From NCBI GenBank assembly GCA_902762295.1, contig CACWNX010000001.1:532094-596093 (forward strand): a stretch of 64,000 nt of DNA. Direction: 5' to 3'. Made by a program: the position numbers and the translations under genes. Positions 1,215 through 55,828 of this stretch are shown in pieces (within the stretch, counting starts at the first letter, position 1; every line of letters starts with the position of its first letter). This DNA comes from an uncultured Pseudomonadota bacterium (GTDB lineage: Bacteria; Pseudomonadota; Alphaproteobacteria; Rs-D84). A model generated the notes under the pieces. The model had not been told where the DNA came from and made no database searches. It saw nothing but the letters and a program-made list of their open reading frames with translations.

Positions 1215-2255
1215 ATGAAAAAAAAGAATATAATAGATTTAATCAAATACCATGTAGAGGATAACGAACCGGCATTCCGTAATGAAGCATATGAAATTGC
1301 AAAGGACTTTGATTTGAATGGCGATTATCAATTAGCCGAATATATTATGAATTTAATGTCAAGCACGAATTCTTTTGTTCCACAACTGTTAGATAATGAA
1401 TCTTCTTTTTTAAAGAAGGTTGATATCAACACAGAACCATTGCCTTTACCTACCGCAATTAAAGATGATATTGTGGGCATTGTAAATGCGACAACACATA
1501 ATGTGGGGGTTAACAAATTTTTATTTGAGGGTGCCCCAGGCACAGGCAAAACCGAAACCGCTAAGCAAATAGCAAGAATTCTTAACAGGGATTTATTTGC
1601 TGTTGATTTTAGTACTATCATAGACAGCAAATTGGGGCAGACCATAAAAAATATCACGGCATTGTTTGATGAAATTAATTCTGTCGTGCATCCAGAAAAG
1701 GTTATAATTTTGTTTGACGAAATAGACGTGATTGCAATAGATCGAATGAATTCCAACGATTTAAGAGAAATGGGCAGAGCAACATCAACTATGTTAAAAG
1801 GTTTGGACTCTCTTAAAGATAAAATTGTTTTAATAGCAACGACAAACTTATTCACTTCGTTTGATAAGGCGCTTGTCCGCAGGTTTGATGCAGTAATAAA
1901 TTTTGATAGATATGGTCATGACGATTTGGAAGAAATTGCGACAATTATTTTGAACGATTTTTTACAAAAATTCAAAATTCCTGAACGCAATACCAAGTTG
2001 TTCAAAAAAATTTTGAATCTTATGGACAAGATACCATTGCCGGGTGATTTGAAAAATTTATTAAAAATTTCTGTCGCTTTCAGCAATCCTTCGGTGAAGT
2101 TTGATTATTTAAAAAGGTTGTTTAACACAATAACAAAAGAAAAAAACTTGGATATGCAAAAACTTCAATCTATGGGTTTTACAGTTAGGGATATTGAAAT
2201 CTTAACAGGTGTATCAAAAAGTCAGGTTTCCAGAGAATTAAGGGATAACAAATGA
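1215..2255 (+). CDS. ietA: AAA+ ATPase with C-terminal HTH, IetA-like (ATPase partner of an S8 protease).
   Basis: Walker A GAPGTGKT, Walker B ILFDEID, C-terminal HTH (ILTGVSKSQVSRELR). Its stop overlaps the start of the downstream subtilase (ATGA). The two-gene architecture matches the IetAS defence system from memory. Confidence 0.6.
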   Translation: MKKKNIIDLIKYHVEDNEPAFRNEAYEIAKDFDLNGDYQLAEYIMNLMSSTNSFVPQLLDNESSFLKKVDINTEPLPLPTAIKDDIVGIVNATTHNVGVNKFLFEGAPGTGKTETAKQIARILNRDLFAVDFSTIIDSKLGQTIKNITALFDEINSVVHPEKVIILFDEIDVIAIDRMNSNDLREMGRATSTMLKGLDSLKDKIVLIATTNLFTSFDKALVRRFDAVINFDRYGHDDLEEIATIILNDFLQKFKIPERNTKLFKKILNLMDKIPLPGDLKNLLKISVAFSNPSVKFDYLKRLFNTITKEKNLDMQKLQSMGFTVRDIEILTGVSKSQVSRELRDNK

Positions 2256-5156: not shown

Positions 5157-5417
5157 TTTTTCTAATCCTTTGGTTGATTAACTGTTTCAATTTAATAGAA
5201 CGTTTGTGGAATAAGCACCAAGAAACTAATCCGTTAAAACTTTAAAATCTTTGTCTGCCTTGGTTTTCTAAGGATTTTTAATTATAAAAATTTATTCATA
5301 AAAAATTCTGAAACTAAAAAAAATATGTTGATTTTATCGTTGGTTTGTTTTATAGTCCTATTCGTGGATAAAAAGAAGTATTCACAGTTTTTAATATTAA
5401 AAATAAAAGGAAAAAAA

Positions 5418-9553: not shown

Positions 9554-11341
9554 TCAGAAATCCTTGTTCTGAATCTGATAAATCAGTTGCGCGAAGCACC
9601 GATTTACGACAGTTGGACAGTAGTGTTCGCCCAGCATTGTTCTGAATTCATCATCCGTCACCACAATATCACCGTGTTGTATTGCGGTTGGGTCGGATTC
9701 AGGAATCGGACCATTTTTGCACCAGATATTACCTTTGCCGTCTCTGATTTTGATTTTTTCAGGTAATTCAAAATCTTTCGGCATACCCATCAACACCAGA
9801 ATTTCATAAAGTGTTCTATGCCGTGCGTCAGACTGTGTTCCATTTGTTCTGCAACGACCAGCCGGAAAATAATGCGCCGGTGCACCAGAGTGTGAAGATT
9901 CGCCAGTAATTGTTGGGGCCGGTCTATCACCATGTGCGCGTTTGATATTCACTTTCTCTATGCTACCGTCCGAATTATGAACTAATGCCAAAGTGTTTTT
10001 GCCTGCCTCGGTATTTTTCAACGCTTCAATAATTTCTGGTGCCAAATCCAGCGCATAATGCAATCGATTAACATCCATTCTTTGTTCGCCGGCTTCAATA
10101 GAAGGAATATCCTGCAAACACAGTTCTTCTGAAATTTTGAATTCATCTGGTTTGGGAAATTTCCAGACATTGGCGTCGGTTATTTCGGTTGTACCAAGAA
10201 TCTTTTGCACAAATTCTTTTTTGATACCCAGAATTATCGCACGATTACGGTTTTCGCCTGTGCCATAGCAATCTGCGTTAAGATAATCAATGTTGGTGAT
10301 GTAGCCCAATTCGTCGGCCTTATCTTTGATGTAATCATAGACGGTATCATAATTTTCATCTTTAATTGTGTCTGGACAACCTCCCAAAAATTCGGGAACG
10401 TTTTCACACATAAACATATCGTTATTATCACCGATATCCTCCAAAAATTGCATACCATACATGACCAATGAAGCATCAACCCGATTGACATTTTGTGTAC
10501 CCGCCTTGGAATAGGACTGACACGGCGGTGACATTAACACCACGCGGCATCTCCGCTTTTTGTGTGCTTTCAAAATCTGTTTGTATACGCTTAGGTTGGC
10601 TATACTACCCGTTATGACTTTACAACTTGGGTACAATTCTTGATGAATTTGCGCCCGTTTATCATGTAATTCGTTTGCTACGGCAACATTGATGTTCAAA
10701 TTTTTCAACAGGCACGTGCCTAAACCGATGTTTGCAAATAAACTGGTTGCACGCACTGTTTTATCAAATTTAACATTTGCTGGCAAAACAATATTTGAAA
10801 ACGCACCATGACATGTGTGTGTTGCCAATTTGGGATTTTTCTTTTTACAGCCCCTTTTTATTGTCAAGGCGCTGTTGATGCTTGGTACATCACCATTGGC
10901 CTTGGCTTCTGCTTTGGCTTTCGCCACACAGTCTGCGTCCAATTCACAGATGCTATGCCAGCGTTTGCCTTTTTTAAACCCATGCGCTTCCATTAATTTA
11001 TCTTTTGCTATCCGTGCTGCTGTAACTGCTGCGCCACTGCCTTTTGTGGGGCCAAGCGCTCTGACTTTATCCGCAATTCTGACGCCTTCATCCAATACTT
11101 TTCCAGCAATATCTTGCGCAAGGTCCAGCAAGTAATTATACAATTCTGGTTCCATATATGCGCAAGACCTCATAAGTTCAATTGCCGCATCAGTCGCTAT
11201 CATTCCCTGTGAAATATAGTCCGCTGTTCCAGCAGGTGTGGCAGGTAAAGCGGGTGGTGCCACAGTTATTACTGCTGGGGTTGAAGTTGTTAATGTTGGT
11301 GCTGTTGCACCGCTTGAAATAGATATACTTTTTGTTGCCAT
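9554..11341 (-). CDS. DNA (cytosine-5)-methyltransferase with a ~190-aa N-terminal extension.
   Basis: Motif I LFANIGLG, motif IV PPCQSYSKAG (the PCQ catalytic Cys), motif VI CENVPEF. The N-terminal region MATKSISISSGATAPTLTTST... is low-complexity. Confidence 0.85.
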   Translation of the reverse strand: MATKSISISSGATAPTLTTSTPAVITVAPPALPATPAGTADYISQGMIATDAAIELMRSCAYMEPELYNYLLDLAQDIAGKVLDEGVRIADKVRALGPTKGSGAAVTAARIAKDKLMEAHGFKKGKRWHSICELDADCVAKAKAEAKANGDVPSINSALTIKRGCKKKNPKLATHTCHGAFSNIVLPANVKFDKTVRATSLFANIGLGTCLLKNLNINVAVANELHDKRAQIHQELYPSCKVITGSIANLSVYKQILKAHKKRRCRVVLMSPPCQSYSKAGTQNVNRVDASLVMYGMQFLEDIGDNNDMFMCENVPEFLGGCPDTIKDENYDTVYDYIKDKADELGYITNIDYLNADCYGTGENRNRAIILGIKKEFVQKILGTTEITDANVWKFPKPDEFKISEELCLQDIPSIEAGEQRMDVNRLHYALDLAPEIIEALKNTEAGKNTLALVHNSDGSIEKVNIKRAHGDRPAPTITGESSHSGAPAHYFPAGRCRTNGTQSDARHRTLYEILVLMGMPKDFELPEKIKIRDGKGNIWCKNGPIPESDPTAIQHGDIVVTDDEFRTMLGEHYCPTVVNRCFAQLIYQIQNKDF

Positions 11342-41900: not shown

Positions 41901-42042
41901 AAAAACGGTTTGTCAAGTGTTTTTGTCAAAAATTTTTTTAGTCAAACTAAAACCCTTGTTTTCCTAGGAAATACAGCCACTTGTTAGGTTTTTGCGTTGG
42001 GGTTAAAATATCTGTATGTTCAACAATAACCAGGGGGAAAAT

Positions 42043-42291
42043 ATGACACATGACGATATTTGGCGCGCAATAGAAAAATTTGCTACCCAACATGGTATGT
42101 CCTGTTCTGGACTGGCGCGGTGCAGTGGTTTAGATCCAACGACGTTTAATAAAAGTAAACGTTGGACCAAAGAAGGGCAACCCCGTTGGCCCTCGACCAA
42201 CAGTATTTCTAAAATTTTGTCTTCTACGGGTTCGTCTATTCAAGATTTTACAAATCTGATTGATAACCCTAACCGCGAGCATACAAATTAG
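42043..42291 (+). CDS. Small HTH (XRE-like) transcriptional regulator.
   Basis: GGGGG RBS. HTH pattern WRAIEKFATQHGMSCSGLARCSGLDPTTFNKSKR. Confidence 0.45.
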   Translation: MTHDDIWRAIEKFATQHGMSCSGLARCSGLDPTTFNKSKRWTKEGQPRWPSTNSISKILSSTGSSIQDFTNLIDNPNREHTN

Positions 42292-43461: not shown

Positions 43462-43631
43462 TGGATTGCCAAGAAAGCCAAGGTTATTTATAAAGTTCTT
43501 GACTTTTAGTTTGTTTTGTGATATCATAGTTGCTGTCAAAAGAAGAAATTGTGTTCACACATTTGTGTGAATTTTTTTATGCCGCATTTTTACGCGGCAT
43601 TTTTTTATTCATCACGGGGGGACGTTTTATC

Positions 43632-44042
43632 ATGGAATTCAAAGTGATAGAAATACAAAACGAATCGATGGCTTTGGCATATGCGATTGCGCGTGTTGTG
43701 TATGCAGAAACATTGGCAAAATCTTTGCGTGTTGTAGAGGCACTAACATCGATGATTTCAAATATTGTACGATGCGATAATCGCAATATCAAAGATGTAA
43801 TATCTGATAAAACATTATTTGAATCATTAAACAGCGAATCGAATCGTCATAAATTTTTGTCGGTTGATGCGTCGCGTCGTGATTTTCAAATGTGTGTTCG
43901 TGTTGCGCAAACCATGCAGCACGGGTGTTTGCCAGATATGTGTAACCATGCAACACGGTTTCATCGTGATGAATTATTGCCTGAATGGGCGCTTGCGCGG
44001 GGGTATGTTGCCGATATTGATGGAATTTTATTTTATGCGTAA
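43632..44042 (+). CDS. SleB/CwlJ-like cell-wall hydrolase (Hydrolase_2 family).
   Basis: C-terminal pattern ATRFHRDELLPEWALARGYVADIDGILFY, plus N-terminal AIARVVYAE. Confidence 0.5.
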   Translation: MEFKVIEIQNESMALAYAIARVVYAETLAKSLRVVEALTSMISNIVRCDNRNIKDVISDKTLFESLNSESNRHKFLSVDASRRDFQMCVRVAQTMQHGCLPDMCNHATRFHRDELLPEWALARGYVADIDGILFYA

Positions 44043-44054
44043 ATGGATTTTTAA

Positions 44055-44243
44055 ATGAATAAATTTATTCGTGGTGGATTTTTTGCAAATCGCAAAACAC
44101 AAATTATGACGGTGGTTGGAATTATATCTGCCGTTTGTGCATATTTAGTCGGCGATTCGGATTTGTTTGCTGTAATCCAGGCAATTATTGCGGTTTGCGC
44201 GGTTTATGTGTTGGATAAATCAAAACAAAACAAAGGAAAATGA
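44055..44243 (+). CDS. Small membrane protein (62 aa).
   Basis: One TM (IMTVVGIISAVCAYLV). Overlaps the next gene by ATGA-like coupling. Confidence 0.35.
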   Translation: MNKFIRGGFFANRKTQIMTVVGIISAVCAYLVGDSDLFAVIQAIIAVCAVYVLDKSKQNKGK

Positions 44244-44244
44244 A

Positions 44245-44901
44245 ATGGAAAATGTCCCAGAAAAATTTTTAAACAAAGATGGTTCACTTAATGAAGATGC
44301 GTTATTGAAATCATATAACGAATTGGAAAAAAAGATTGGAAATATGGTATCAATTCCAACATCCGATTCTGATGAAGTCGCGCAACGCCGCTTTTTTCGG
44401 GCGATTGGTGTCCCAGAAAGTTCTGATGAATACCCACATAATGAACTTTTTGATGATGAAAATGTCAGGTCAGAATTTCATAAAATCGGATTAACAAACA
44501 ATCAAGTTGAAAAAATTTATAACATCGCCGAAGAATATTTGTCGCCGGTATTATCAGAAATTTTTTCTGCACAACAAGAATCAAATGCAATATCTGAATT
44601 AAAAAAATTTTTCGGGTCTGATGAAAAAATGTACAATGCTTTAATTGAAATTAAATCGTTCGGTGAACGTTTTTTACCAATCGATGCATTCAACGAACTG
44701 TGCGCCAGCGCCCAGGGAATTCAAGGTGTCTATAAGATGATGCAAACAATGGAACCACATGTTGAAACATCGAATGGCGATACAAAAAATTTAACCGATG
44801 ATGATTTACGACGAATGATGCGTGATCCAAAATATTGGCGTGATCATGATGCGGAATATATTCGCAAAATTGAAAACGGATTTAAAAAATTGTATTCATA
44901 A
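44245..44901 (+). CDS. Phage scaffolding-like protein (podovirus gp9-like).
   Basis: Acidic helical protein directly upstream of the capsid gene. The C-terminus RRMMRDPKYWRDHDAEYIRK resembles the remembered T7 gp9 tail. Inference only. Confidence 0.45.
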   Translation: MENVPEKFLNKDGSLNEDALLKSYNELEKKIGNMVSIPTSDSDEVAQRRFFRAIGVPESSDEYPHNELFDDENVRSEFHKIGLTNNQVEKIYNIAEEYLSPVLSEIFSAQQESNAISELKKFFGSDEKMYNALIEIKSFGERFLPIDAFNELCASAQGIQGVYKMMQTMEPHVETSNGDTKNLTDDDLRRMMRDPKYWRDHDAEYIRKIENGFKKLYS

Positions 44902-45018: not shown

Positions 45019-45309
45019 ATGGCATTCACATTCTTGAAAACTGCGGCAAAGAAACCAGCTGCAAAAAAACCGGCGGCCAAGAAACCGGCTGCTAAGAAAC
45101 CTGCTGTAAAGAAAGCGGCTGCGAAAAAACCAGCGGCAAAGAAAGTTGCAGCAAAAAAACCGGCTGCAAAGAAAGTTGCAGCAAAAAAACCGGTTGCAAA
45201 AAAAGTTGCAGTGAAGAAAGTTGCGGCGAAAAAACCGGTTGCAAAAAAAGTTGCGGCAAAAAAACCGGCTGCAAAAAAGCCATGTGCAAAATGTGCAAAA
45301 AGAAAATAA
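45019..45309 (+). CDS. Lys/Ala-rich histone H1/Hc1-like DNA-binding protein (AKKPAAKK repeats).
   Basis: ~18 tandem KKPAA/KKVAA repeats. Cys pair CAKCAKRK at the C-terminus. Confidence 0.6.
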   Translation: MAFTFLKTAAKKPAAKKPAAKKPAAKKPAVKKAAAKKPAAKKVAAKKPAAKKVAAKKPVAKKVAVKKVAAKKPVAKKVAAKKPAAKKPCAKCAKRK

Positions 45310-45536
45310 TCTTGTTTGCAAAATCTGATTAAATGCCCGCATTGCGGGCATTTATCGTTTATAAAAATTTTCAGTCGGATTGTGTATCTGACTGAATTTT
45401 TTTATCTTTGGATAATCCAATTATTTGGACCCAGTTGAATTTATTAATGGCGCTAAACGGCATAACCAAAAATAAATTTTTGGTGGACGAAATATTATTC
45501 GTCCTTTGTTTTAATTTTTTAACAAAAGGAATAATT

Positions 45537-46352
45537 ATGTCTGTTTCCATAGATCAAGCATTTGTGAAACAATTTGAAGCAGATGTCCATCTTGCGTACC
45601 AGCAAATGGGCACAAAACTGCGTTCAACGATTCGCAGTAAATCGGGTGTTGTTGGTGCAACCACAACATTTCAAAAAATTGGTAAAGGCACCGCCAGTAC
45701 AAAGTCACGTCATGGTATTGTGCCGGTAATGAATCTGAATCATACACCGGTGGAATGCACACTGCAAGATTACTATGCAGGCGATTGGGTTGATGCATTG
45801 GACGAATTAAAAATCAATGTTGATGAACGTCGCGTTGTTGCATCCGCGGGTGCATACGCACTGGGGCGCAAGACCGATGAACTGATTATCGCCGCGATGA
45901 ATCAAACAACCCAAAATGTCGGAGATTATTCAACAGGATTGACCAAAGCATTGATTTTAAGCGCATTGGAAAAATTGAATGAAAACGATGTCCCAGATGA
46001 TGGCCGCAGATTTGCAGTTGTTGGTGTACACCAGTGGAATGAACTGTTGGGTATCGCAGAATTTTCATCGGCAGATTATGTCGGTTCTGATTTACCGTTC
46101 ATCACGGGTGGCGAAGGCAAACGATGGTTAGGTATCACATGGTTGTTGCATAACGGATTACCGGTTTCGTCTGATAATCGTGATTGCTTTATTTATCATG
46201 CATCCAGTATTGGACATGCGTGTGGCCAGGAGGTTAAAACCGATATCACATGGCATGGTGAACGTGCCGCGCACTTTATCAGCAACAGTATGTCCCAAGG
46301 GGCGGTTCTGATAGATAACGACGGTATTGTACGTGTTAAATGTGGCGAATAA
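45537..46352 (+). CDS. Phage major capsid protein (T7 gp10-like).
   Basis: AAAGGAATAATT RBS. Patterns KSRHGIVPVMNLNHTP and a C-terminal ...GIVRVKCGE resemble T7 gp10. Position between scaffold and tail-tube genes. Confidence 0.55.
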   Translation: MSVSIDQAFVKQFEADVHLAYQQMGTKLRSTIRSKSGVVGATTTFQKIGKGTASTKSRHGIVPVMNLNHTPVECTLQDYYAGDWVDALDELKINVDERRVVASAGAYALGRKTDELIIAAMNQTTQNVGDYSTGLTKALILSALEKLNENDVPDDGRRFAVVGVHQWNELLGIAEFSSADYVGSDLPFITGGEGKRWLGITWLLHNGLPVSSDNRDCFIYHASSIGHACGQEVKTDITWHGERAAHFISNSMSQGAVLIDNDGIVRVKCGE

Positions 46353-46375: not shown

Positions 46376-46606
46376 ATGGCTTTTCAGAATAAAAATTTAT
46401 CGGTAATTGCGTATGCAAACGGATTCACATTGTGGCACTATGTTGCAAATGAAACATTGGCAACAATCATTGCCAGTGGCTATTTTAACATGGTTAAAAC
46501 TTTGATGAATTCAGGTGATATCGTAATCATTAACGCATCAGATAAAACATCAATTAAAAAAATTGTAGTCGGCGATAGCGCGGTAACAACCGGAGCGTTA
46601 GATTAA
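46376..46606 (+). CDS. Hypothetical phage structural protein (76 aa).
   Basis: Follows the capsid gene behind a GGGGG RBS. A terminator hairpin AGGGCCGGATTTTCCGGCCC follows at 46629-46650. Confidence 0.4.
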   Translation: MAFQNKNLSVIAYANGFTLWHYVANETLATIIASGYFNMVKTLMNSGDIVIINASDKTSIKKIVVGDSAVTTGALD

Positions 46607-46682
46607 TAACGATATTAGTTCATAACTTACAGGGCCGGATTTTCCGGCCCAAATTTTAATGTTAGATAACAAAGGTAAAAAA

Positions 46683-47201
46683 ATGCTGACGAAAATAGAT
46701 TTATGTTCAATGGCGTTGTTGAAACTTGGTGAAAACCCAATTCAGTCATTATCGGATGATACCGCCGCGGCGAAACTTGGACGCACATTGATTGATTTTG
46801 TAATAGATACATTATTATCATCGCATCCATGGCGTTTTGCGTGCCGTACATATAATTTAACAAAAGATGAAAACGGTGATTTTAATATTCCGTCCGATGT
46901 ATTGCGTATACTAAAAACCAATGGGCGCATAATGGAAAATCGCGTGGTTTCTGATTCAGATAACATCACAATAACTGCAATTGTGCGTATCGCACCAAAT
47001 GAATTTCCAAGTTATTTTGCATCATTGGTTGCAACAAAACTTGCATCAGAATTTTGTATGCCGTTGATATCAGATACGGCGGTTTTTCGGACATTGGTCG
47101 CACTTTATGAAACAGAATTACAAACCGCAAAATTCATAGACAGCACTACATCGGTCAACCCGGCAATAGAAAACTTTTCTTTGATAGACAGCAGATTTTA
47201 A
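46683..47201 (+). CDS. Tail tubular protein A (T7 gp11-like, gatekeeper).
   Basis: IDLCSMALLKLGENPIQSLSDDTAAAKLGRTLIDFVIDTLLSSHPWRFA parallels the T7 gp11 N-terminus (ILASIGEPPVSTLEGD...ILNKINRQIQSRGWTF). Confidence 0.55.
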   Translation: MLTKIDLCSMALLKLGENPIQSLSDDTAAAKLGRTLIDFVIDTLLSSHPWRFACRTYNLTKDENGDFNIPSDVLRILKTNGRIMENRVVSDSDNITITAIVRIAPNEFPSYFASLVATKLASEFCMPLISDTAVFRTLVALYETELQTAKFIDSTTSVNPAIENFSLIDSRF

Positions 47202-47219: not shown

Positions 47220-48926
47220 ATGGTGAATTTTATAAAAACACAAACATCATTTGCAAATGGCGAAGTAGCCCCAAACTTTTTTGCAAATTCCGACATTCAT
47301 GGGCTTGCGCGAATGGAAAATATGGATGTTATATCGGGCGGTGGTTTGACCCGTCGTGCAGGATTGAAAAAAATCGCAAAATTATCTGGACCGGCGCGGT
47401 TAATTCCATTTTCTGTATCAGAAACAGAAAATTATACATTAGCAATTATGAACGGTGTTATGCGTATATTCGCAGGCGATACAATCGTCCAAGATATGTT
47501 TGTCCCGTGGTCATATACAGATACAGAATTGCTACAATATTCGCAGAGATTCGGGACAATGATATTTGTTCACCCAAATCATAGACCAAGAATATTATCA
47601 TGCGTAAATGGTGAATTTGACATAAAAAATTTTATTTTCGCATCTTCGGATGATAACGGAAAATATTATATACCGTATATGCGGTTTGAAGATTCAGAAA
47701 ATATAAATATTACAGTCACGTATGATAATGGAAATATTCATTTTATAACCGGTGTTGATTTCTGGACACCGGATAATGTCGGTGGTTATTTATCATTATT
47801 AAATAACAGTTGGCTGGTCACATCATATATTGGACCACGTGATATTATCGCAACAACCAATGGAACATATCTTTTGCCAAATAATCCAATATCAGATTGG
47901 CAAGAGGCCGCGTTCAGCCCACGACGCGGATGGCCGACCAGTATAACATTTCATCAAAACCGACTTGTGTTTGGTGGTTCAAAATCATGGCCAGGTGGTG
48001 TTTGGATGTCACGTGTCGGCGACCATAAAAATTTTGACATCGGTACGGGGCTTGATGACGAAGCAATATACTTTACGTTGTTGTCTGGCAAGCGCCAGCA
48101 TATATGCACGCTGATTAGCAGTGATAATTTGCAAATATTTACATCCGAAGGCGAATGGGCAGTATCAAATAAACCATTAACGCCAGAGTCAGTAGATATA
48201 AAAATGCATACCGCGATTGGCTGCGTCGCCGACCGATATTTGCCACCGCAAATTATGGAGGGAACAACAGTTTTTGTACCCAACAATAAAAAAGATATCA
48301 GAGAACTGGTTCTTGATGATCTTAGTAAAAATTACAATGCAAATAATTTATCGGCATTATCGGAACATTTGATAAATAATCCGATAGATATCGCGTACAA
48401 CAAAAACACCAAAAAATTATTTGTTGTTATGTCAGACGGTAATATGGCGGTATTAAATTGGAATTCAATACTAGAAATTGCGGCATGGGGGCGATACACA
48501 ACAACCGGTAAATTTAAATCTGTGGTGGCATCGGGTGGTGACACTTTTGTTGTGACTGAACGTGGTTCGCAATATTTCCTGGAACGATTTGATGACAACA
48601 CAATGATAGATGCAGGTGAATATCCCTATACAGTTTGTGCACGGGGTTTGCCGTTAATGTCATCAGGTCACAACGCAAAAAACACACGGATTACAAAAAT
48701 TACCGCGCGTGTGCATGATTCCAAGACATTATTTATAAATAATTATCGGGCAGAATTTCCAAATGAAATTTATTCAAATGATTCATCCGGATTTTCTGGG
48801 GACATATCGGTTAATGTACTTGGAACAATCCATGATATGGTTGATGCGCCGTGGGAGATATCAACCTCTGATGCGTTGCCATTGACCGTTTTATCAATCA
48901 CAACATATGGCAGATATCAAATTTAA
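47220..48926 (+). CDS. Tail tubular protein B-like (T7 gp12-like nozzle), shortened.
   Basis: Position after gp11-like. The N-terminal pattern resembles gp12. 568 aa. Confidence 0.45.
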   Translation: MVNFIKTQTSFANGEVAPNFFANSDIHGLARMENMDVISGGGLTRRAGLKKIAKLSGPARLIPFSVSETENYTLAIMNGVMRIFAGDTIVQDMFVPWSYTDTELLQYSQRFGTMIFVHPNHRPRILSCVNGEFDIKNFIFASSDDNGKYYIPYMRFEDSENINITVTYDNGNIHFITGVDFWTPDNVGGYLSLLNNSWLVTSYIGPRDIIATTNGTYLLPNNPISDWQEAAFSPRRGWPTSITFHQNRLVFGGSKSWPGGVWMSRVGDHKNFDIGTGLDDEAIYFTLLSGKRQHICTLISSDNLQIFTSEGEWAVSNKPLTPESVDIKMHTAIGCVADRYLPPQIMEGTTVFVPNNKKDIRELVLDDLSKNYNANNLSALSEHLINNPIDIAYNKNTKKLFVVMSDGNMAVLNWNSILEIAAWGRYTTTGKFKSVVASGGDTFVVTERGSQYFLERFDDNTMIDAGEYPYTVCARGLPLMSSGHNAKNTRITKITARVHDSKTLFINNYRAEFPNEIYSNDSSGFSGDISVNVLGTIHDMVDAPWEISTSDALPLTVLSITTYGRYQI

Positions 48927-48944: not shown

Positions 48945-49292
48945 ATGGGTCAAATACTTTCAGATGTTAAAGATATATTAAACTATAAAGACATTAAGCA
49001 AGAAGCAAAAACATCCAAAAATAAAATTCTTGAACAGATTTCAAAAGACGATGCCGAAAAAGAGAATCTGATAAAAAAACTTTTGGCATCACAACGTGCT
49101 AAATATGGCGCATCGGGCATGTCGCCAAAAGGATTAACCGAAAAGGCAGTGCTAGAACGTATAAAAGATGAAACCGAAAAACCATATGAAACAAAACGTC
49201 AGACGAATTTGAATAAATTAAAAAATATCAAAACCAAGAAAAAAAATTTATTGGTGTCTGTATTGGAACACATGGACGACTTGATTAAGTAA
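48945..49292 (+). CDS. Hypothetical protein (115 aa, charged, helical); possible small terminase.
   Basis: Immediately precedes the terminase ATPase ORF. Confidence 0.35.
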   Translation: MGQILSDVKDILNYKDIKQEAKTSKNKILEQISKDDAEKENLIKKLLASQRAKYGASGMSPKGLTEKAVLERIKDETEKPYETKRQTNLNKLKNIKTKKKNLLVSVLEHMDDLIK

Positions 49293-49293
49293 T

Positions 49294-49887
49294 ATGAATC
49301 AATATCATCAATTTTTAGATGCCTGGAATTCTGTATTGGGTATGACAACCCCAGCGCATCATTATCGTATGACAGATTTTTTGGTTGATGTTTTAGAAAG
49401 TGATGCACATCGTGGTCTGTTAATGGCATTCCGGCATTCGGGTAAATCAACAATTGTTGGAATATTTGCAACATGTGTATTATTCTTGCGGCCAGAAACG
49501 CGAATTTTAATACTGTCTGCCCAGGCACATCAGGCAACGCGTATGGTTATGCATATTCGTAATATCTTGGAAAATCATCCATGGTGTCGTGATATGATTC
49601 CAAAAAATCGTCGTGAATGGGCGGAAAACAAAATTACAATAAACCGACCAATTGGAATTCGCGAACCATCGGTTGTGTGTCAAGGAATATATGGTAATGT
49701 GACAGGCATGCGTGCAGATTTAATAATTTGCGATGATGTAGAGGTACCCAATACCTGTAATACTGGGCAAAAGCGAACCGCAATACGCGAAAGACTGCGA
49801 GAACTGGATTTTGTGCTCTCACCGAATGGTTCAATGGTTTATATCGGAACACCGCACACATTGGATACAATATACCGAACAAATTAA
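49294..49887 (+). CDS. Phage terminase large subunit, N-terminal ATPase fragment.
   Basis: Walker A AFRHSGKST, Walker B LIICDDVE, coupling motif YIGTP. The ORF ends at 49887 before any nuclease domain. Confidence 0.6.
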   Translation: MNQYHQFLDAWNSVLGMTTPAHHYRMTDFLVDVLESDAHRGLLMAFRHSGKSTIVGIFATCVLFLRPETRILILSAQAHQATRMVMHIRNILENHPWCRDMIPKNRREWAENKITINRPIGIREPSVVCQGIYGNVTGMRADLIICDDVEVPNTCNTGQKRTAIRERLRELDFVLSPNGSMVYIGTPHTLDTIYRTN

Positions 49888-50537
49888 ATGCTAGTACCGT
49901 TTTTTTGTATATTCAAAATGTCGTGCAGTTTATCCAAAATTTGATGTCCCGCTTCACCAAACATCGGCAGATATGTTTCATATTCCAACATATCAACCTG
50001 TAATTGCGCGCGTGCGCGGTCATTTATTGGATTTGATATGATATTATTTGCACTGTCCCATGCGCGATAGGCATTCCATGTCCGAACGACATCGTCAAAG
50101 CGTTCAAGTTCGGTCGGATTATTACCTAATGCGCTTTGGGTCAGTGCAATCCAATTTGTGCCGAATTTTTTGATAACAGGATTTTTCATAAAATTGTTCA
50201 GGCCATCTTGATTAGGGGTAAATACATTAACCGCCGCAATTAGCTGTTTGATATCTTCGGATGAAATATCTATATTCAGTGTTGCATCAACCATCATCCC
50301 GCCATACGGCAATAATTCACGCGCAATGGAATCCATTGGGGTTTCACCCGAACGCAGATTTTTAATGTGTTCAACCAGCATTTTACCCGTTGGTAAATTT
50401 ACCAGTTCGCGCATAACATCTTCGGTGGCTTCGTCCATGAAAACAGGATTCAACACCGCCCAGCCACCGTCTATAACATGCGCCTGGCGGTATAGATTTA
50501 ATAACTTTTGTGCGGTGACACTGGCCTTTGCTTTCAT
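49884..50537 (-). CDS. Hypothetical protein (217 aa) within the terminase-interrupting module.
   Basis: ORF from the track, antisense to the phage structural genes. Confidence 0.5.
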   Translation of the reverse strand: MKAKASVTAQKLLNLYRQAHVIDGGWAVLNPVFMDEATEDVMRELVNLPTGKMLVEHIKNLRSGETPMDSIARELLPYGGMMVDATLNIDISSEDIKQLIAAVNVFTPNQDGLNNFMKNPVIKKFGTNWIALTQSALGNNPTELERFDDVVRTWNAYRAWDSANNIISNPINDRARAQLQVDMLEYETYLPMFGEAGHQILDKLHDILNIQKNGTSI

Positions 50538-50567
50538 CTCGATTATCCCCTCCTTGGTCGGTTTAAT

Positions 50568-51578
50568 TTATTCTGTAATGACCATAATAACCCGATGCAT
50601 GGTTTGGTATGAGATTTTTTCCTCTGGTGCCATCATTTGCCCATACAGATTGCCTTTGGAATCACGACGCACAACGGCGATATTCGCGGTCGCCGCATCG
50701 TCAGGTTTTAACGTGTTAAAGTCGGCATCAATAAAGACCGCCAAATCGCCAACATTAACCGGTGACTTTATATCGGCAAAGACATAAGATTTCTCGGGAA
50801 TAACCCCGCCAAGCCTTTTAGAATTCGGCACAACCGCATATATACCGCGTCGTCCTTCAAGATTTGCGGGTGCAACAATCATATTTGTATCAGATTTCTT
50901 GAACGATATTGATTTGCCTTCGGGTTTACCGAATACCGGAACCAGTTTTTTGCGTGCGTTTTCATACAATTTTGCACCATACATGTGACCACGGGTATCG
51001 CCCAAATCGACCGGCGAATCACCCGGTATCAGAACTGCGGTGACCTTTTCTTTGACTTTGTTCATTTGTTTGGTCAATTCGCCCGATTTGTACAGTGTGG
51101 CGATTTTATCAAACATGCCTTCAACCGATTGTGCAAATGAACGCGCCAATGGCTCAATTTCATTTTTATACACTTCGCGTTGTCCGACCTCTATCTTGTG
51201 ATACACGGACAGTGTCATACCTGCGTCTTTTGCGGCCTGTGCAATGGTTTTGCCAGATTGCTGGCGGATTTTACGTAAACCGCTGCCGAATATTTTTAAG
51301 CCACTGTCCTCGTTGTCGGCCATACGGCGTTTAATTTCACTCTGCCATTTGGTGGCGACATCATCGGTATCTTTGATAAAAATATCGGATAATTTACAGC
51401 CCAATATGTTGCAGATATTTAATAACTGCTTTTGATTTAAACGGCGAACACCTTTCTCAATCTTAGATACCGCCGACAAAGACAAATTTGAACGACGCGC
51501 CAGTTCGGTCATTTTCATTCCTGCGGCCAGACGAATATTGCGAATGTTGTTTGGAAAGATGATTTCTTCTTGGGCCAT
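50568..51578 (-). CDS. Tandem-HTH (two XRE-type domains) regulator with a C-terminal domain; phage CI-like repressor candidate.
   Basis: AAGGAG RBS, start MAQEEIIF. HTH 1 IRNIRLAAGMKMTELARRSNLSLSAVSKIEKG. HTH 2 LRKIRQQSGKTIAQAAKDAGMTLSVYHKIEVG. Confidence 0.6.
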   Translation of the reverse strand: MAQEEIIFPNNIRNIRLAAGMKMTELARRSNLSLSAVSKIEKGVRRLNQKQLLNICNILGCKLSDIFIKDTDDVATKWQSEIKRRMADNEDSGLKIFGSGLRKIRQQSGKTIAQAAKDAGMTLSVYHKIEVGQREVYKNEIEPLARSFAQSVEGMFDKIATLYKSGELTKQMNKVKEKVTAVLIPGDSPVDLGDTRGHMYGAKLYENARKKLVPVFGKPEGKSISFKKSDTNMIVAPANLEGRRGIYAVVPNSKRLGGVIPEKSYVFADIKSPVNVGDLAVFIDADFNTLKPDDAATANIAVVRRDSKGNLYGQMMAPEEKISYQTMHRVIMVITE

Positions 51579-51680
51579 AGTAAACTCCTTAGTAAATCTT
51601 GACAAAATAATAGTCAAATTTATAAAACTTGGCAAGTAAAAAGTTAATACTGGTTGGTAAAAAACAGATACCACTAACCA

Positions 51681-53222
51681 CTAGTCTATATCGTCTGGAA
51701 TTGCGGATAAATCAATTGGGACGGCATCAGGTGCATCCGATGTCGGTTCCGGTGCATCATCAACAAATTGTGGCACACGATTCGCCATGTCGTCCAGATT
51801 ATCAAACAAACTGTATTCGGCCAAGAATGCAACATTTACTGTATCGGTTCGGCCATGACGGTTTTTACCAATAATGATATCGGCTTTGCCACGTGATTTT
51901 TCCAAGCGCTTTTCCCACGAATCTTTGGATTTATCACTTGGAGTATTAGAAAGCCGGAATGATGGATCACGATTCGTTAAATAATATTCTTCGCGATATG
52001 TGAACATCACAATGTCGGCATCTTGTTCAATAGACCCAGATTCACGCAAATCGGCCAACTGGGGGCGTTTGTCATCCCGGGATTCAACACTGCGTGATAA
52101 TTGAGACAATGCAACCACCGGAACATTAAATTCTTTGGCCAGCATTTTTAAACTGCGTGTAATTTCAGATAATTCTTGGACACGATTATCTTTGTTTTTT
52201 CCGCCCGGTGAAGTCAGCAATTGCAGATAATCAACCACAATCAGTGCAATACCGTTATACTTTCGTGCCAATCGCCGTACACGCGTGCGAATCATCGGTA
52301 CCGACATCCCCGGTGTATCATCAATGAATAACGGAATACGACTTATCGCATCAGAAAATTGAGTCATTTTTAGAAAGTCTTCATCGGTCAGCGAACCTTC
52401 ACGCATTGCAGATGCCGGAATTCGTGATTGAGATGATAATACACGTGCCGCCAATTCAGATGCACCCATTTCAAGGCTGAAAAACGCAACCGCACCCTTA
52501 TATTGGCTGTTTGCACGACCAGAAAAGATTGCGTTTGCGGCATTGAATGCAATGTTTAGTGCCAATGCGGTTTTACCCATACCTGGGCGGCCGGCGATAA
52601 TCAACAGATTTGATTTATGCATGCCACTAATTGCACGATCCAAATCGGTCAACCCCGTGGTAAGCCCCGACAGTTTTCCATCGGCCTTGTATGCGATTTC
52701 TGCCTCAATCAAGGCATCTTTTAACGCATTTGCAATTGGTGTGACATCGCGCCCGGTATCACCAACGGTTGCAAGGTTGAATAATTTTTGTTCGGCAACT
52801 TCTATCTGGGTGGAAACCGGATTATCCAGGTCTTCCACAAATGCGGCATCGGTAATTCCCTGACCCAGGTTGATAAGTTCGCGCCGCAACGCATTGTCAT
52901 GCACGATACGACCGTATTGTTCAACATTTACCACCGTCGCCCCGGCCCCAGCCAACTGAGTCAGATAATCAACACCACCAACCGATTCCAATGTTCCCTG
53001 TTGGTCAAGGTAATTTTTAATTGTAATGATGTCAAACGGGATACCCGCCGCAAAGTGGCGCATAGCCAATTTATAAATTTCTTGGTGCGCGGGATGCGAA
53101 AAATCTTCGGGTTTTAAGAATTCAGAAATTTTTTCCAATGCCCGATTGTTCATCAGAACCGCGGCCAACACGGCCTGTTCGGCTTCTAAATTCGTTGGTA
53201 AAGTTTTGGGAGTGAAGTCCAT
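51681..53222 (-). CDS. DnaB-family replicative DNA helicase (~505 aa from Met MDFTPKT).
   Basis: N-terminal LEAEQAVLAAVL, Walker A GRPGMGKTALALNIA, Walker B IVVDYLQLL. The track ORF extends 77 codons further upstream, likely beyond the real start. Confidence 0.8.
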   Translation of the reverse strand: MDFTPKTLPTNLEAEQAVLAAVLMNNRALEKISEFLKPEDFSHPAHQEIYKLAMRHFAAGIPFDIITIKNYLDQQGTLESVGGVDYLTQLAGAGATVVNVEQYGRIVHDNALRRELINLGQGITDAAFVEDLDNPVSTQIEVAEQKLFNLATVGDTGRDVTPIANALKDALIEAEIAYKADGKLSGLTTGLTDLDRAISGMHKSNLLIIAGRPGMGKTALALNIAFNAANAIFSGRANSQYKGAVAFFSLEMGASELAARVLSSQSRIPASAMREGSLTDEDFLKMTQFSDAISRIPLFIDDTPGMSVPMIRTRVRRLARKYNGIALIVVDYLQLLTSPGGKNKDNRVQELSEITRSLKMLAKEFNVPVVALSQLSRSVESRDDKRPQLADLRESGSIEQDADIVMFTYREEYYLTNRDPSFRLSNTPSDKSKDSWEKRLEKSRGKADIIIGKNRHGRTDTVNVAFLAEYSLFDNLDDMANRVPQFVDDAPEPTSDAPDAVPIDLSAIPDDID

Positions 53223-54069
53223 GTCAGATATAGTATATGAAAAAAATGTTTTTTCAACGCCTTTTTTATCGGGGTATATGGAATTAAAAATACCAATACT
53301 GGATTCAAACGGAAATTCCGCGTGGCCGGCGGTTTTCCCGCTTGAAAAGATAGAACAAATTCGCAAAACCGTTGGCGAACGGTACTTTTCGGCCCAGATG
53401 ATGCTGAAATTCGTTGCACCCGAACGGATTCGGTTGGACCCAGGCGGAATCAAATTCTATGACAATGAATATGATGTACGAAATTCACGAATCGGCGAAC
53501 ACTTTATCACCGGCGCGTGCGTATATTGGGATCCATCCGGCGGGCGACGTGGTGGCGACAACAGTGTGTGCGCAATGATATACCGCGATGACAATAATCA
53601 TTGCGTGTTTATTCACGATATAATGTATATCGTTGTTCCCGAAAATACGGATTATCCATTGGCATACCAATGCGATTCAGTGCTGTCATTTGTACGGCGA
53701 CATAAAATGCGTGTTTTGGCACTGGAAACAAACGGACTAGGAAATGCATTACCCGAGATAATGCGTACGACGATTGACCGTGCCGGATACAGTATTCAAA
53801 TTCGTCCGATTACAAATTCACGTCGCAAAGAAGACCGAATATTGGATGCAATAGAACCATTGCTGTCAACTGGTCGATTATATGCACACAAACGAATCAC
53901 CCAGACCCCGTTTATATCAGAAATGTTATCTTGGTCGCCAATGGGTGCCCCAGAACATGATGACGGATTAGATGCGGTGTCGGGCGCGATTACTGGAAAT
54001 CCGATTGCGTTGCATCCGATTGGTTCATCGCTGAACCGATATACCGCAAACACAGATTTCAAAATTTAA
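53221..54069 (+). CDS. Phage terminase large subunit, C-terminal nuclease fragment.
   Basis: GGAGTGAAG RBS with ATG at 53221 (MSDIVYEK). RNaseH-like nuclease patterns VYWDPSGGRRGGD and HDDGLDAVSGA. The track ORF begins at 53146, overlapping dnaB. Confidence 0.5.
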   Translation: MSDIVYEKNVFSTPFLSGYMELKIPILDSNGNSAWPAVFPLEKIEQIRKTVGERYFSAQMMLKFVAPERIRLDPGGIKFYDNEYDVRNSRIGEHFITGACVYWDPSGGRRGGDNSVCAMIYRDDNNHCVFIHDIMYIVVPENTDYPLAYQCDSVLSFVRRHKMRVLALETNGLGNALPEIMRTTIDRAGYSIQIRPITNSRRKEDRILDAIEPLLSTGRLYAHKRITQTPFISEMLSWSPMGAPEHDDGLDAVSGAITGNPIALHPIGSSLNRYTANTDFKI

Positions 54070-54093: not shown

Positions 54094-55320
54094 ATGAAAT
54101 ATGATTTACAACAAATGTATGTGCGCGCATTGGCACTGCGTGAACCATGGATTCGGCGTTGGACTGATGCACGCAGATATACAATGCCATCAACAGATTC
54201 AGACATGGCAACATTGTTTGATGCAACCGCATCTGATGCCGCGGATAACCTTGCAGCATGTATGTATTCATTACTGACACCGCCAGAATCGCTGTGGTTG
54301 ACCCTGGTTCCCGAAGGGCCCGATTCGCCCAATGCAGAAATCGCGACGGCGGCACTGCGCGCGAATCTGAACGAATCAAATTTTTATACAACCGTGCACC
54401 AGTGTTATATGGATTTGGTCACCCTTGGGACGGCGTGTTTGTTTATGTCGGAAAATCCGATTGGTGCCGCCAGTGCGTTTTCTTTTACCGCAATCCCAAT
54501 GCAAGACATCGCGATTTTGCCGAATGCAGTATTTCATACGGCGACAATGACAGCAGTGGATATTATACAAAAATATCCAGATTGGACACCGCCACGTGAA
54601 ATAATGGATAAAATGAAACAGAATCCCGAATACCAATTACGCATGGTTCAGTCGTTGGTTGATACAGAATTCACAGCATGGATAGATGTTGGTGGTGATA
54701 TTGAAAATAATATCGTTGCACACGGAACATTTGAAACGAACCCATATTTGATATTCCGGTGGGCGGTGGCCAGTGGTGAATTGTACGGTATGGGACCGGT
54801 GATTCGTGCATTACCCGATATTAAAACGGCAAACAAAGTCGTTGAATTGGTATTGAAAAACGCGACAATCGCGGTTAGTGGTATTTGGCAGGCCGATGAT
54901 GATGGTGTTATAAACCTTGGCAATATCAATTTAACACCGGGTGCAATTATTCCCAAGGCCGTGGGCAGCAGTGGTCTGACCCCGCTGACCAGTGGTGCGA
55001 ATTTTGATGTATCACAAATTGTATTAAAAGATTTGCGTGAACGGATTCGTCATACATTATTGGCAGATCGAATCGGGTTATTGTCAGACAAAGAAATGAC
55101 GGCAACTGAAATTCTGGCGCGCAACGCAGATATGTTGCGTATTTTGGGTGCAACATATGGGCGATTACTGCATGAATTTATTCGCCCGTTGTGTGATCGT
55201 GGACTTCAGATACTATCGCGGCGCGGCGTAATAGATAAAATATCATTACACAGTGATGCGGAATTAAAATACATTGCGCCAATTGCGAAAATGGTTGCCG
55301 ACAATGAAACACTGATTTAG
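54094..55320 (+). CDS. Phage portal (head-tail connector) protein, T7 gp8-like.
   Basis: LREPWIRRWTDARRYTMPSTDSD parallels the T7 gp8 N-terminus (RAPYETRAQNCAQYTIPSLFPKDSD). 408 aa. Confidence 0.5.
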   Translation: MKYDLQQMYVRALALREPWIRRWTDARRYTMPSTDSDMATLFDATASDAADNLAACMYSLLTPPESLWLTLVPEGPDSPNAEIATAALRANLNESNFYTTVHQCYMDLVTLGTACLFMSENPIGAASAFSFTAIPMQDIAILPNAVFHTATMTAVDIIQKYPDWTPPREIMDKMKQNPEYQLRMVQSLVDTEFTAWIDVGGDIENNIVAHGTFETNPYLIFRWAVASGELYGMGPVIRALPDIKTANKVVELVLKNATIAVSGIWQADDDGVINLGNINLTPGAIIPKAVGSSGLTPLTSGANFDVSQIVLKDLRERIRHTLLADRIGLLSDKEMTATEILARNADMLRILGATYGRLLHEFIRPLCDRGLQILSRRGVIDKISLHSDAELKYIAPIAKMVADNETLI

Positions 55321-55334
55321 CAAAGGGGGCGAGC

Positions 55335-55541
55335 ATGGAAAAAAATGAAATTGCCTATGCGCGAACATTTTTAACCCCATCGGGTCACGCAGTACTGGAA
55401 CATCTGCGTAAAATAACGATTGAACGCGTACTGGGACCAAATGCAACCGAATCAGAATTACGAACGGTTGAAGGTATGCGTGCATTGGTTCATCAAATTG
55501 AAAACATGGTTGAACGGGGGCGCGATAATGCAAAGATATAA
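55335..55541 (+). CDS. Hypothetical small phage protein (68 aa).
   Basis: ORF from the track. Confidence 0.35.
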   Translation: MEKNEIAYARTFLTPSGHAVLEHLRKITIERVLGPNATESELRTVEGMRALVHQIENMVERGRDNAKI

Positions 55542-55785
55542 CGGATTATCGGGTATTATTGACACATTGCGCAGTGGTTGGTTTCTAATTGCGTTTATCG
55601 CAGGACTGATTTACTGGGTTGCGCGTCAAGATAATGCACTTGTTGAATTGGACCGGTTGACGGTTCGTATGACGACATTGGAAAATCGCACAACGGTTCT
55701 TGAAAGTGGAATAGGGCAATTACAATTAAAAATAGATGCCATCAAGGAAGATTTAACACTGATAAAAACCGCGGTTATAAAGTAA
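55529..55785 (+). CDS. Small membrane/coiled-coil protein (85 aa), holin-like.
   Basis: TM WFLIAFIAGLIYWV followed by a coiled coil. Overlapping start. Terminator downstream. Confidence 0.35.
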
Positions 55786-55787
55786 AA

Positions 55788-55828
55788 AAATCCCACAGAA
55801 TTTTTTTCTGTGGGATTAGATTTTTTTT
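55788..55828 (+). terminator. Rho-independent terminator, end of the phage-like module.
   Basis: CCCACAG-N9-CTGTGGG hairpin plus T8. Confidence 0.65.

Follow-up and report, generated by a model that had tools for sequence, protein, structure and literature searches.

A T7-type large terminase gene kept in two pieces around an antisense dnaB block in Alphaproteobacteria of gut and rumen

Background

Large terminases are the textbook case of a single-chain motor, in which ATPase, lid and nuclease are thought to be coupled through their covalent linkage. The T7-type enzyme (gp19 family, NF033889; Protein Data Bank (PDB) chains 8dgc and 4bij) is one polypeptide. Here we describe a locus where an enzyme of this type is encoded by two open reading frames (ORFs), TerL-N and TerL-C, which lie 3.3 kb apart and which, when joined, hold the full ATPase and RNaseH-like motifs in collinear order. 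The locus is found in a 64-kb stretch of chromosome from an uncultured alphaproteobacterium of the order Rs-D84 (GenBank assembly GCA_902762295.1, contig CACWNX010000001.1, positions 532,094 to 596,093), which is referred to as the window and from whose first nucleotide all coordinates are counted. As in T7, the genomic partners of the terminase are a T7-type portal, scaffold, capsid and tubular proteins A and B; unlike T7, the element is without T7 RNA or DNA polymerase genes and resides in a bacterial chromosome.

Interrupted genes of comparable kind have been described in other viruses. In herpesviruses the terminase gene UL15 consists of two exons that flank the antisense genes UL16 and UL17 and are joined by spliceosomal splicing. 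There, as here, a gene for a terminase ATPase-nuclease is broken by opposite-strand genes, whereas bacteria have no spliceosomal route for joining the exons and no self-splicing element was found at the present locus. The terminase gene of Campylobacter phage IBB_35 is likewise interrupted, by an intein and an intron (PMC3322345); these interruptions are spliced out at the RNA or protein level to leave one polypeptide, while no intron or intein sequence was seen here. NrdA of Aeromonas phage Aeh1 is split by the homing endonuclease mobE, and its pieces must reassemble non-covalently, with function retained (PMC3045599; Friedrich et al. 2007). The likeness to such 'genes-in-pieces' is that an enzyme gene exists as two separately translated pieces, whose reassembly would be expected here as well. 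The differences are that the gap at the present locus is filled not by a homing endonuclease but by an antisense block of three host genes with an essential gene among them, and that the split is fixed across a bacterial lineage, with codon-level overlaps on both sides.

The second point of comparison is with gene transfer agents (GTAs). Like the Caulobacter GTA (CcGTA) and BaGTA, the element in the window is a compact, chromosomally fixed, phage-derived cluster for head, tail, packaging and lysis, with no replication or integration genes. Its structural module is, however, T7-like rather than HK97/RcGTA-like or BaGTA-like. The locus appears to be a variation on two known kinds of system, enzymes split as 'genes-in-pieces' and domesticated phage clusters of GTA-like type. 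Four features come together in it: a two-piece TerL maintained by selection across the lineage, a domesticated T7-like element, the cell's dnaB nested in the gap with codon-level overlaps on both sides, and a predicted helicase promoter in terminase codons.

Results and discussion

A complete terminase in two reading frames

The ORF map and scans of the ORFs at 42-56 kb with the Pfam, PHROGs and NCBIfam libraries place two intact terminase ORFs on either side of a 3.3-kb antisense block of three genes, dnaB, a regulator and p217 (Table 1). TerL-N matches PHROG 38 (large terminase) over positions 288-459 and the NCBIfam model termin_lrg_T7 (NF033889) over positions 2-190 of 500, with 221.6 bits against a cut-off of 150. 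TerL-C matches PHROG 38 over positions 481-703 and Pfam Terminase-T7_RNaseH-like with E = 1.3e-9, this domain beginning at about residue 279 of the concatenated sequence; scored alone against NF033889 it reaches 112 bits, under the 150-bit cut-off. The single polypeptide that characterizes T7-type terminases is replaced by two ORFs with 3.3 kb of antisense genes between them in 42 of the 42 split loci that were collected.

On alignment with intact relatives of 480-510 residues, the joined halves (479 residues) are collinear end to end, and every invariant residue is present. In the numbering of the concatenate these include G50-K51-S52 of Walker A, D147-D148 and E150 of Walker B and G185-T186-P187-H188, together with E366, D444, D445 and D448 of the nuclease. 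No residue is gained or lost at the cut, and the alignment to the PDB chains 8dgc and 4bij crosses the junction uninterrupted. An AlphaFold2 model of the concatenated halves (mean pLDDT 76.8) finds its best fold match in the PhiV-1 terminase chain 8dgc_E (E = 6e-26). The break falls in the length-variable stretch between 'GTPHxxxxIY' and 'PFLxGFxxLxIP', within a modelled loop of pLDDT below 50 (residues 196-222), which is preceded by the last β-strand of the ATPase core (residues 175-185) and followed by a helix (238-256) and the nuclease domain (275-455). As modelled, the cut site is thus a variable surface loop just past the ATPase core and not the boundary between ATPase and nuclease. Since the chain is broken after the last core strand with its GTPH motif, about 80 residues of the ATPase lid and linker go with the nuclease half; following the P74-26 and Sf6 terminase structures, we take this N-terminal region of TerL-C to be the lid subdomain.

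Both junctions of the block are free of spacer. At one end the stop codons of TerL-N and p217 overlap in TTAA (49884-49887), and at the other the start codons of DnaB (53222..53220) and TerL-C (53221-53223) overlap in CATG (53220-53223). A Shine-Dalgarno sequence, GGGAG, is placed 8 nt 5' of the TerL-C ATG, and TerL-C and the portal gene are 24 nt apart. Each of the two terminase ORFs has a start codon of its own and its own Shine-Dalgarno or coupled-translation context. The GGGAG sequence and the N-terminal peptide of TerL-C, MS(D/N)IVYEKNVFSTPFL, are conserved across the split loci. One public annotation begins TerL-C at the internal Met20 (53278; 263 residues); this start was rejected because Met20 is not conserved while the peptide upstream of it is. 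The CATG start/start overlap is kept in all split loci. The stop/stop overlap is 4 nt in most of them, and the sequence of the TerL-N/p217 junction varies from species to species. Neither a second TerL nor a second DnaB occurs within the 64-kb window.

These results bear out much of a preliminary description of the locus made from its reading frames, which had proposed a terminase divided by a 3.3-kb, three-gene antisense module, with Walker A and B motifs in a first ORF ending at 49887, a second ORF starting at 53221 behind its own ribosome-binding site and head-to-head with the start of dnaB, and the only DnaB of the window between them. Its naming of the halves as an ATPase ORF and a nuclease ORF holds for the ATPase core, which is in the N-terminal half, but not for the lid and linker, which are with the nuclease. 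Alignment to full-length TerL has now located the break, which that description had left to be defined.

Distribution and selection

We fetched 172 loci from genomes, metagenomes and IMG/VR, 42 with a split and 128 with an intact TerL. The halves of every one of the 42 split loci are separated by p217, the regulator and dnaB in the same order, and in none of the 128 intact-TerL loci was any of the three genes found within the fetched flanks. Such a distribution suggests that the split arose once, long ago, in the ancestor of the clade. The Walker A, Walker B, GTPH, WDP, ExNG and DDxLDA motifs are retained in 42/42 split loci, and no frameshifts or internal stops were seen in their TerL halves. 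A search for TerL-N homologues covering 5.8 billion proteins gave 849 matches; the best 120, which were inspected, are all of 177-217 residues and 70-88% identical to TerL-N, and there is no fused TerL among them. The closest full-length terminases (450-515 residues) are 43-50% identical. The identical TerL-N protein is present on 15 contigs from unrelated projects, and the TerL-C proteins of split loci, from many species, are 54-84% identical to that of the window.

Selection was estimated from pairwise Nei-Gojobori ratios of nonsynonymous to synonymous divergence (dN/dS), many of which are approximate as dS often exceeds 1; they are 0.03-0.07 for TerL-N, 0.07-0.16 for TerL-C, which evolves about twice as fast, 0.02-0.08 for DnaB, 0.02-0.07 for the portal and, in most pairs, 0.02-0.06 for the capsid. 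In the least diverged pair (loci L017 and L018, dS about 0.2-0.4) the values are 0.04 for TerL-N and 0.07 for TerL-C. Median identity among split loci is 86% for the capsid, 83% for the portal and 85% for DnaB. Judged by these ratios, purifying selection on both halves is about as strong as on DnaB. Low dN/dS together with intact motifs argues that both halves are functional proteins, and on this comparison the split is fixed lineage-wide, neither recent nor decaying.

The antisense block

The dnaB gene product scores above the cut-offs of the NCBIfam equivalog model NF006606 (600.6 against 540 bits) and of TIGR00665 (507 against 385), and below that of the phage_DnaB model TIGR03600 (407.7 against 498.65). 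Its nearest solved structures are cellular DnaBs, far ahead of G40P of phage SPP1. On the evidence of these profiles and solved relatives, the DnaB of the block is the cellular replicative helicase of the host and not part of a phage module. The 'replication and lysogeny module' of the preliminary description is accordingly given up, and its figure of 505 residues for DnaB is corrected by the conserved ATG (Table 1).

The regulator is 74-91% identical across split loci. It had been described as CI-like, and its two XRE-type helix-turn-helix (HTH) domains agree with this; the rest of the comparison does not, there being no S24 or LexA similarity. Its C-terminal 157 residues match no Pfam family even at E = 10, and a CI/LexA-type repressor with an S24 autopeptidase was rejected as an assignment (LexA profile comparison, probability 1.6%). 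Between dnaB and the regulator, which are 102 nt apart, the minus strand has two promoter-like sites that overlap each other (TTGCCA-17-TATTAT and TTGTCA-17-TACTAT; 51577-51635). The regulator may thus have its own, possibly autoregulated promoter.

For p217 there is no match in Pfam, PHROGs or NCBIfam and no informative fold match; its best 120 homologues are of similar length and come, without exception, from alphaproteobacterial metagenome-assembled genomes (MAGs) and metagenomes. Family scans of the 3.3-kb gap detected no homing endonuclease of the HNH, GIY-YIG or LAGLIDADG type, and Pfam and NCBIfam scans no recombinase domain in the block. Direct and inverted repeats are limited to short matches, with no pair spanning both junctions, and an Rfam scan of 48.5-54.5 kb at E <= 1 returned a single chance-level match, far under its gathering score, as candidate intron or ribozyme. 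Target-site duplications, introns and inteins, which had been suggested as marks to look for at the two junctions, were thus sought and not found.

Predicted promoters, terminators and transcription

Promoters and terminators were called from consensus patterns, and since shuffling leads one to expect just as many promoter-like sites as the region contains, only the conservation of such signals carries weight. The predicted dnaB promoter is situated inside the 5' codons of TerL-C (Table 1). In the form TTGAAA-N16-TAC(T/C)AT it occurs in 34 of 34 distinct split loci, and in 32 of these only 7 nt separate its end from the ATG, so that the dnaB mRNA would be leaderless. The other two (L075 and L162) have an insertion close to the TerL-C 5' end; the promoter is still there, at 22-25 nt from the ATG. 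The lengthened dnaB leader of L075 contains a Shine-Dalgarno-like AAGGA, which fits leaderless dnaB in the other loci. Over the promoter, synonymous variation in TerL-C is close to nil; it amounts to 0.48 bits for codons 1-20, as against 1.2-1.4 bits in the remainder of the gene.

The predicted promoter of the structural and lysis operon, TTGACT followed by an extended -10, is present in all 17 distinct leaders from split loci. Sixteen of the 17 have at least two leader hairpins, whose stem sequences differ among species with pairing kept; in the intact-type element L092 no clear equivalent of these leader terminators was seen. The leader (43499-43631) is a candidate control region for antitermination or attenuation. 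A promoter followed by leader terminators and by further terminators within the operon is also the arrangement of CcGTA and BaGTA. Antitermination is experimentally established for CcGTA, through GafZ (PMC11150451), and reported for BaGTA, through BrrG (bioRxiv 10.1101/2024.11.20.624540). Unlike in those systems, a homologue of a known antiterminator was not identified here in PHROG and NCBIfam scans, where the antiterminator candidates p91 and p151 have no match.

Upstream of TerL-C no conserved sigma-70-like plus-strand promoter was found within 400 nt, and neither block junction has a strong terminator. As no promoter could be recognised for TerL-C, portal, Bbp19 or p85 themselves, we infer that transcription reaches them by read-through that starts at the operon promoter. 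Under processive antitermination, a polymerase that has been modified at the leader would pass the internal terminators; the transcript begun at 43.5 kb would then traverse TerL-N, run antisense over p217, the regulator and dnaB, cross the dnaB promoter, and continue into TerL-C, portal, Bbp19 and p85. The arrangement of these signals suggests that such antiterminated read-through probably does run antisense across dnaB. If so, transcription of the late genes and of dnaB would meet head-on, each excluding the other on any one template, and particle production and dnaB expression would be mutually antagonistic.

A bolder proposal, which we consider doubtful, is that the nesting of dnaB in a split terminase is no frozen accident but a selected commitment switch by which the packaging motor is made only where the helicase is shut off. 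Were this true, the late transcript would occlude the leaderless dnaB promoter and make a 3.3-kb antisense RNA to dnaB and the regulator, particle production would be irreversibly tied to replication arrest in a self-sacrificing subpopulation, and the terminase would be the first natural viral packaging ATPase acting as a non-covalent heterodimer.

Proposed reassembly of the halves and competing explanations

The explanation that we favour, with some reserve, is that the ATPase core and the lid-nuclease piece reassemble non-covalently. Early in the lineage a 3.3-kb chromosomal block of dnaB, the two-HTH regulator and p217 would have entered the TerL loop in opposite orientation, after which TerL-N and TerL-C would be made as separate polypeptides and come together as a working packaging motor. 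As nothing that could rejoin the halves was encountered, be it repeats, recombinase, intron, intein or a fused form, non-covalent reassembly is the route that we adopt. Functioning as two polypeptides was one of the two readings offered in the preliminary description, and it fits all of the evidence presented above; the other, a recent insertion, does not.

Several observations weigh against this explanation and the transcriptional scheme joined to it. Within the cluster, neither a small terminase subunit nor a tail fibre nor any internal core protein was identified; the approximate nature of many dN/dS ratios and the chance-level number of promoter-like sites have been mentioned. The low synonymous variation in TerL-C codons 4-15 could come from another constraint, for example translation initiation, and an unconventional TerL-C promoter located in dnaB is possible.

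The first of these points is shared by an alternative in which the halves have been co-opted separately, as a stand-alone ATPase and a nuclease with a part in DNA degradation, defence or a replication-linked process, the structural genes being kept for a DNA-free particle. Purifying selection shows that each protein matters and not that the two cooperate, TerL-C evolves at about twice the rate of TerL-N, and ejection proteins are, like the small subunit and tail fibre, not found in the cluster. However, the halves always occur together and beside portal, capsid and scaffold, all motifs for coupled ATPase and nuclease action are retained, the portal gene directly 3' of TerL-C is equally constrained, and the cut in the loop removes no residues. 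We therefore regard separate co-option as unlikely.

It would be very improbable, in our estimate, that an intact terminase is rebuilt, whether by programmed excision of the 3.3 kb (as for skin in sigK), by intron trans-splicing or by a split intein. Such mechanisms are known for other interrupted genes, TerL genes with an intein and an intron are documented (PMC3322345), and producer cells that lyse could afford the loss of dnaB. Excision is nevertheless hard to reconcile with junctions that lack repeats, with the missing recombinase and with a first junction whose sequence is variable between species, splicing with the Rfam result, and rebuilding of any kind with the lack of a fused form among the best 120 of 849 homologues. 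A split intein was rejected, because TerL-N ends and TerL-C starts on terminase residues and nothing is added to the chain on either side of the break.

A recent disruptive insertion with decaying fragments, or an error of sequencing or assembly, is the default expectation for a phage gene interrupted in a single genome and had been entertained in the preliminary description along with a second full-length TerL, but is scarcely tenable with the same architecture and conserved junctions in 42 independent loci from many species and projects (the layout recurs in dozens of independent assemblies, which rules out assembly error), dN/dS far below 1 for both halves, no frameshifts, intact motifs and one TerL in the window.

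If the two halves do reassemble, this lineage-conserved natural split would show where the terminase chain tolerates a break and would provide a ready-made system for studies of coupling between subdomains.

The T7-like element and its host

The element spans about 42-55.8 kb within ordinary chromosome (Table 1). Its upstream gene order is p91, p151 and BirA, followed by the promoter and leader of the structural operon. Family scans of the ORFs at 42-56 kb revealed no integrase, polymerase or primase, the sole replication gene being the cellular-type dnaB, and megablast of 45-56 kb against 50,697 phage records gave no match. The same host genes, BirA upstream and YraN downstream, flank the element across split loci, although housekeeping proteins are only about 55-70% identical between the species. 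Structural, packaging and lysis genes without integration or replication genes suggest a GTA-like cluster. The element lacks replication, integration and excision genes of its own, and shows vertical inheritance and purifying selection (dN/dS of 0.02-0.16 for most structural genes); we infer from this gene content and pattern of inheritance that it is a domesticated, GTA-like element rather than an active prophage.

Table 1. Predicted genes and signals of the split-terminase element, in window coordinates
Feature	Coordinates	Strand	Remarks
p91, small Cro/CI-type HTH protein, candidate regulator of the element	42016-42291	+	weak Pfam HTH_26 match
Predicted structural/lysis operon promoter	43499-43527	+	TTGACT-17-TG-TATCAT; 10/12 consensus matches, extended -10
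Two tandem intrinsic-terminator-like hairpins in the leader	43553-43572, 43579-43600	+	leader RNA fold z = -2.7
Cell-wall hydrolase, endolysin-like	43632-44042	+	PHROG 938 endolysin; homologues with Pfam Hydrolase_2
p62, small hydrophobic protein, putatively holin-like	44055-44243	+	two hydrophobic segments; kept in all split loci
T7-type scaffolding protein	44245-44901	+	Pfam Phage_T7_Capsid, E = 3.4e-10
Lysine-rich AKKP-repeat protein, histone H1-like (HC2-like)	45019-45309	+	Pfam HC2, E = 7.7e-14
Two terminator-like hairpins 3' of the HC2-like gene	45330-45396	+	
Major capsid protein	45537-46352	+	Pfam Phage_capsid_2, E = 2e-75
p76, small conserved protein 3' of the capsid gene	46376-46606	+	PHROG 18004
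Strong GC-rich terminator 3' of p76	46632-46650	+	GGGCCGG...CCGGCCC; position recalls T7 T-phi after gene 10
Tail tubular protein A	46659-47201	+	Pfam Tube, PHROG 394
Tail tubular protein B (nozzle)	47220-48926	+	PHROG 376, E = 6e-84; L092 homologue with Pfam Phage_nozzle
p115, in the position of the T7 small terminase subunit	48945-49292	+	kept in all split loci
TerL-N, Rossmann-type ATPase core of T7-type large terminase	49294-49887	+	197 aa; Walker A SGKST, Walker B CDDVE, GTPH
p217, all-alpha protein	49884-50537	-	217 aa; stop overlaps TerL-N stop
Regulator with two XRE-type HTH domains	50568-51578	-	336 aa, ORF open to 51674; Pfam HTH_3 twice
dnaB, cellular-type replicative DNA helicase	51681-53222	-	513 aa from conserved ATG; both DnaB domains
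TerL-C, ATPase lid/linker and RNaseH-like nuclease	53221-54069	+	282 aa; WDP, ETNG, DDGLDA
Predicted dnaB promoter	53230-53257	-	TTGAAA-16-TACTAT; inside TerL-C codons 4-15
Portal (head-to-tail connector)	54094-55320	+	Pfam Head-tail_con, E = 3e-80
Bbp19-like protein	55335-55541	+	Pfam Phage_Bbp19
p85, membrane/XhlA-like protein	55528-55785	+	weak XhlA match
Bidirectional terminator hairpin, end of element	55789-55817	both	12-bp stem

The named split loci in GTDB genomes belong to 'Candidatus Enterousia sp.' or 'Ca. Enterousia avicola', and the remaining ones are MAGs of rumen and gut Alphaproteobacteria; the window itself derives from a gut or rumen bacterium with a reduced genome, related closely to Ca. 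Enterousia. Enterousia is placed in the order Rs-D84, with genomes mostly below 1 Mb and severe metabolic reduction (PMC12306168); the keeping of a 14-kb cluster in genomes of this size argues for selection. With a predicted helicase promoter inside virus-derived codons, and with virus-derived genes that are probably transcribed through the helicase gene, host and ex-viral regulation would be unusually intertwined in bacteria with genomes below 1 Mb.

Relatives with an intact terminase and origin of the arrangement

Versions of the cluster with an intact TerL (L009, L023-L092 and L102-L172) are widespread, in Caenispirillum, Roseomonas, Thalassospira, Magnetospirillum, Elioraea, Micavibrio and gut MAGs. 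They are about 11-13 kb long and, where flanks were inspected (e.g. L092 and L009), lie, like the split element, among housekeeping genes. Their gene set is also the same (p91, portal, Bbp19, scaffold, capsid, tube A, tube B, TerL and hydrolase), and integrase or replication genes are absent from the intact-type clusters. Homologues of p91 adjoin both split and intact elements in other Alphaproteobacteria. The intact-type alphaproteobacterial elements differ in that TerL is a single ORF of 480-510 residues, that no dnaB is present in the fetched flanks, and that the gene order is another one. Copies in IMG/VR, viewed through the best 80 viral matches, are mostly fragments of about 10-13 kb, the longest contig among those matches being 56 kb.

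Two gene orders are found in the intact elements, portal-Bbp19-scaffold-capsid-tubeA-tubeB-X-TerL-hydrolase and TerL-hydrolase-portal-...-tubeB. Relative to both, the Enterousia order, hydrolase-...-tubeB-p115-TerL-portal-Bbp19, involves a block move besides the insertion. One may speculate that it arose by tandem duplication and subsequent reciprocal loss. Literature searches returned no paper on a T7-like GTA, on these compact elements or on a split terminase. The compact T7-like elements of about 12 kb may be an apparently undescribed family and a candidate new type of GTA, with members in gut and rumen microbiomes among others.

Further observations on the cluster and its surroundings

The small protein p115 has no family match in Pfam, PHROGs or NCBIfam. 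The divergent split loci L036, L045 and L060 have about 550 nt more between p115 and TerL-N than the window has, and in L007 and L008 an ORF of about 180 residues is called in this gap (L007, 9496-10044). This additional ORF may code for a small terminase subunit or be some other accessory gene.

The HC2-like protein, encoded between the scaffold and capsid genes, has 96 residues, nearly all of them in AKKP/AAKK repeats, and with tblastn it was seen neither in intact elements nor in the split loci that are more distant. From its composition it could be an internal DNA-condensing protein. In a related species a protein of 158 residues with an Mtd_N domain adjoins YraN, just outside the element (L007, 17200-20630; L008, 17637-18113). 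Mtd_N is the N-terminal domain of the tropism determinant of Bordetella phage BPP-1, and the protein is a candidate tail fibre or receptor-binding protein.

The rest of the window codes for a ParC/GyrA-type topoisomerase, NrdD, PriA, LpxI, BirA, YraN and BamA. The chromosome upstream of the element codes for a subtilase (2252-4468), for a probable trimeric autotransporter adhesin with a YadA-like anchor (5325-7331) and, on the minus strand, for a C-5 cytosine DNA methyltransferase (9554-11341), which together represent surface and restriction-modification functions within a very small genome.

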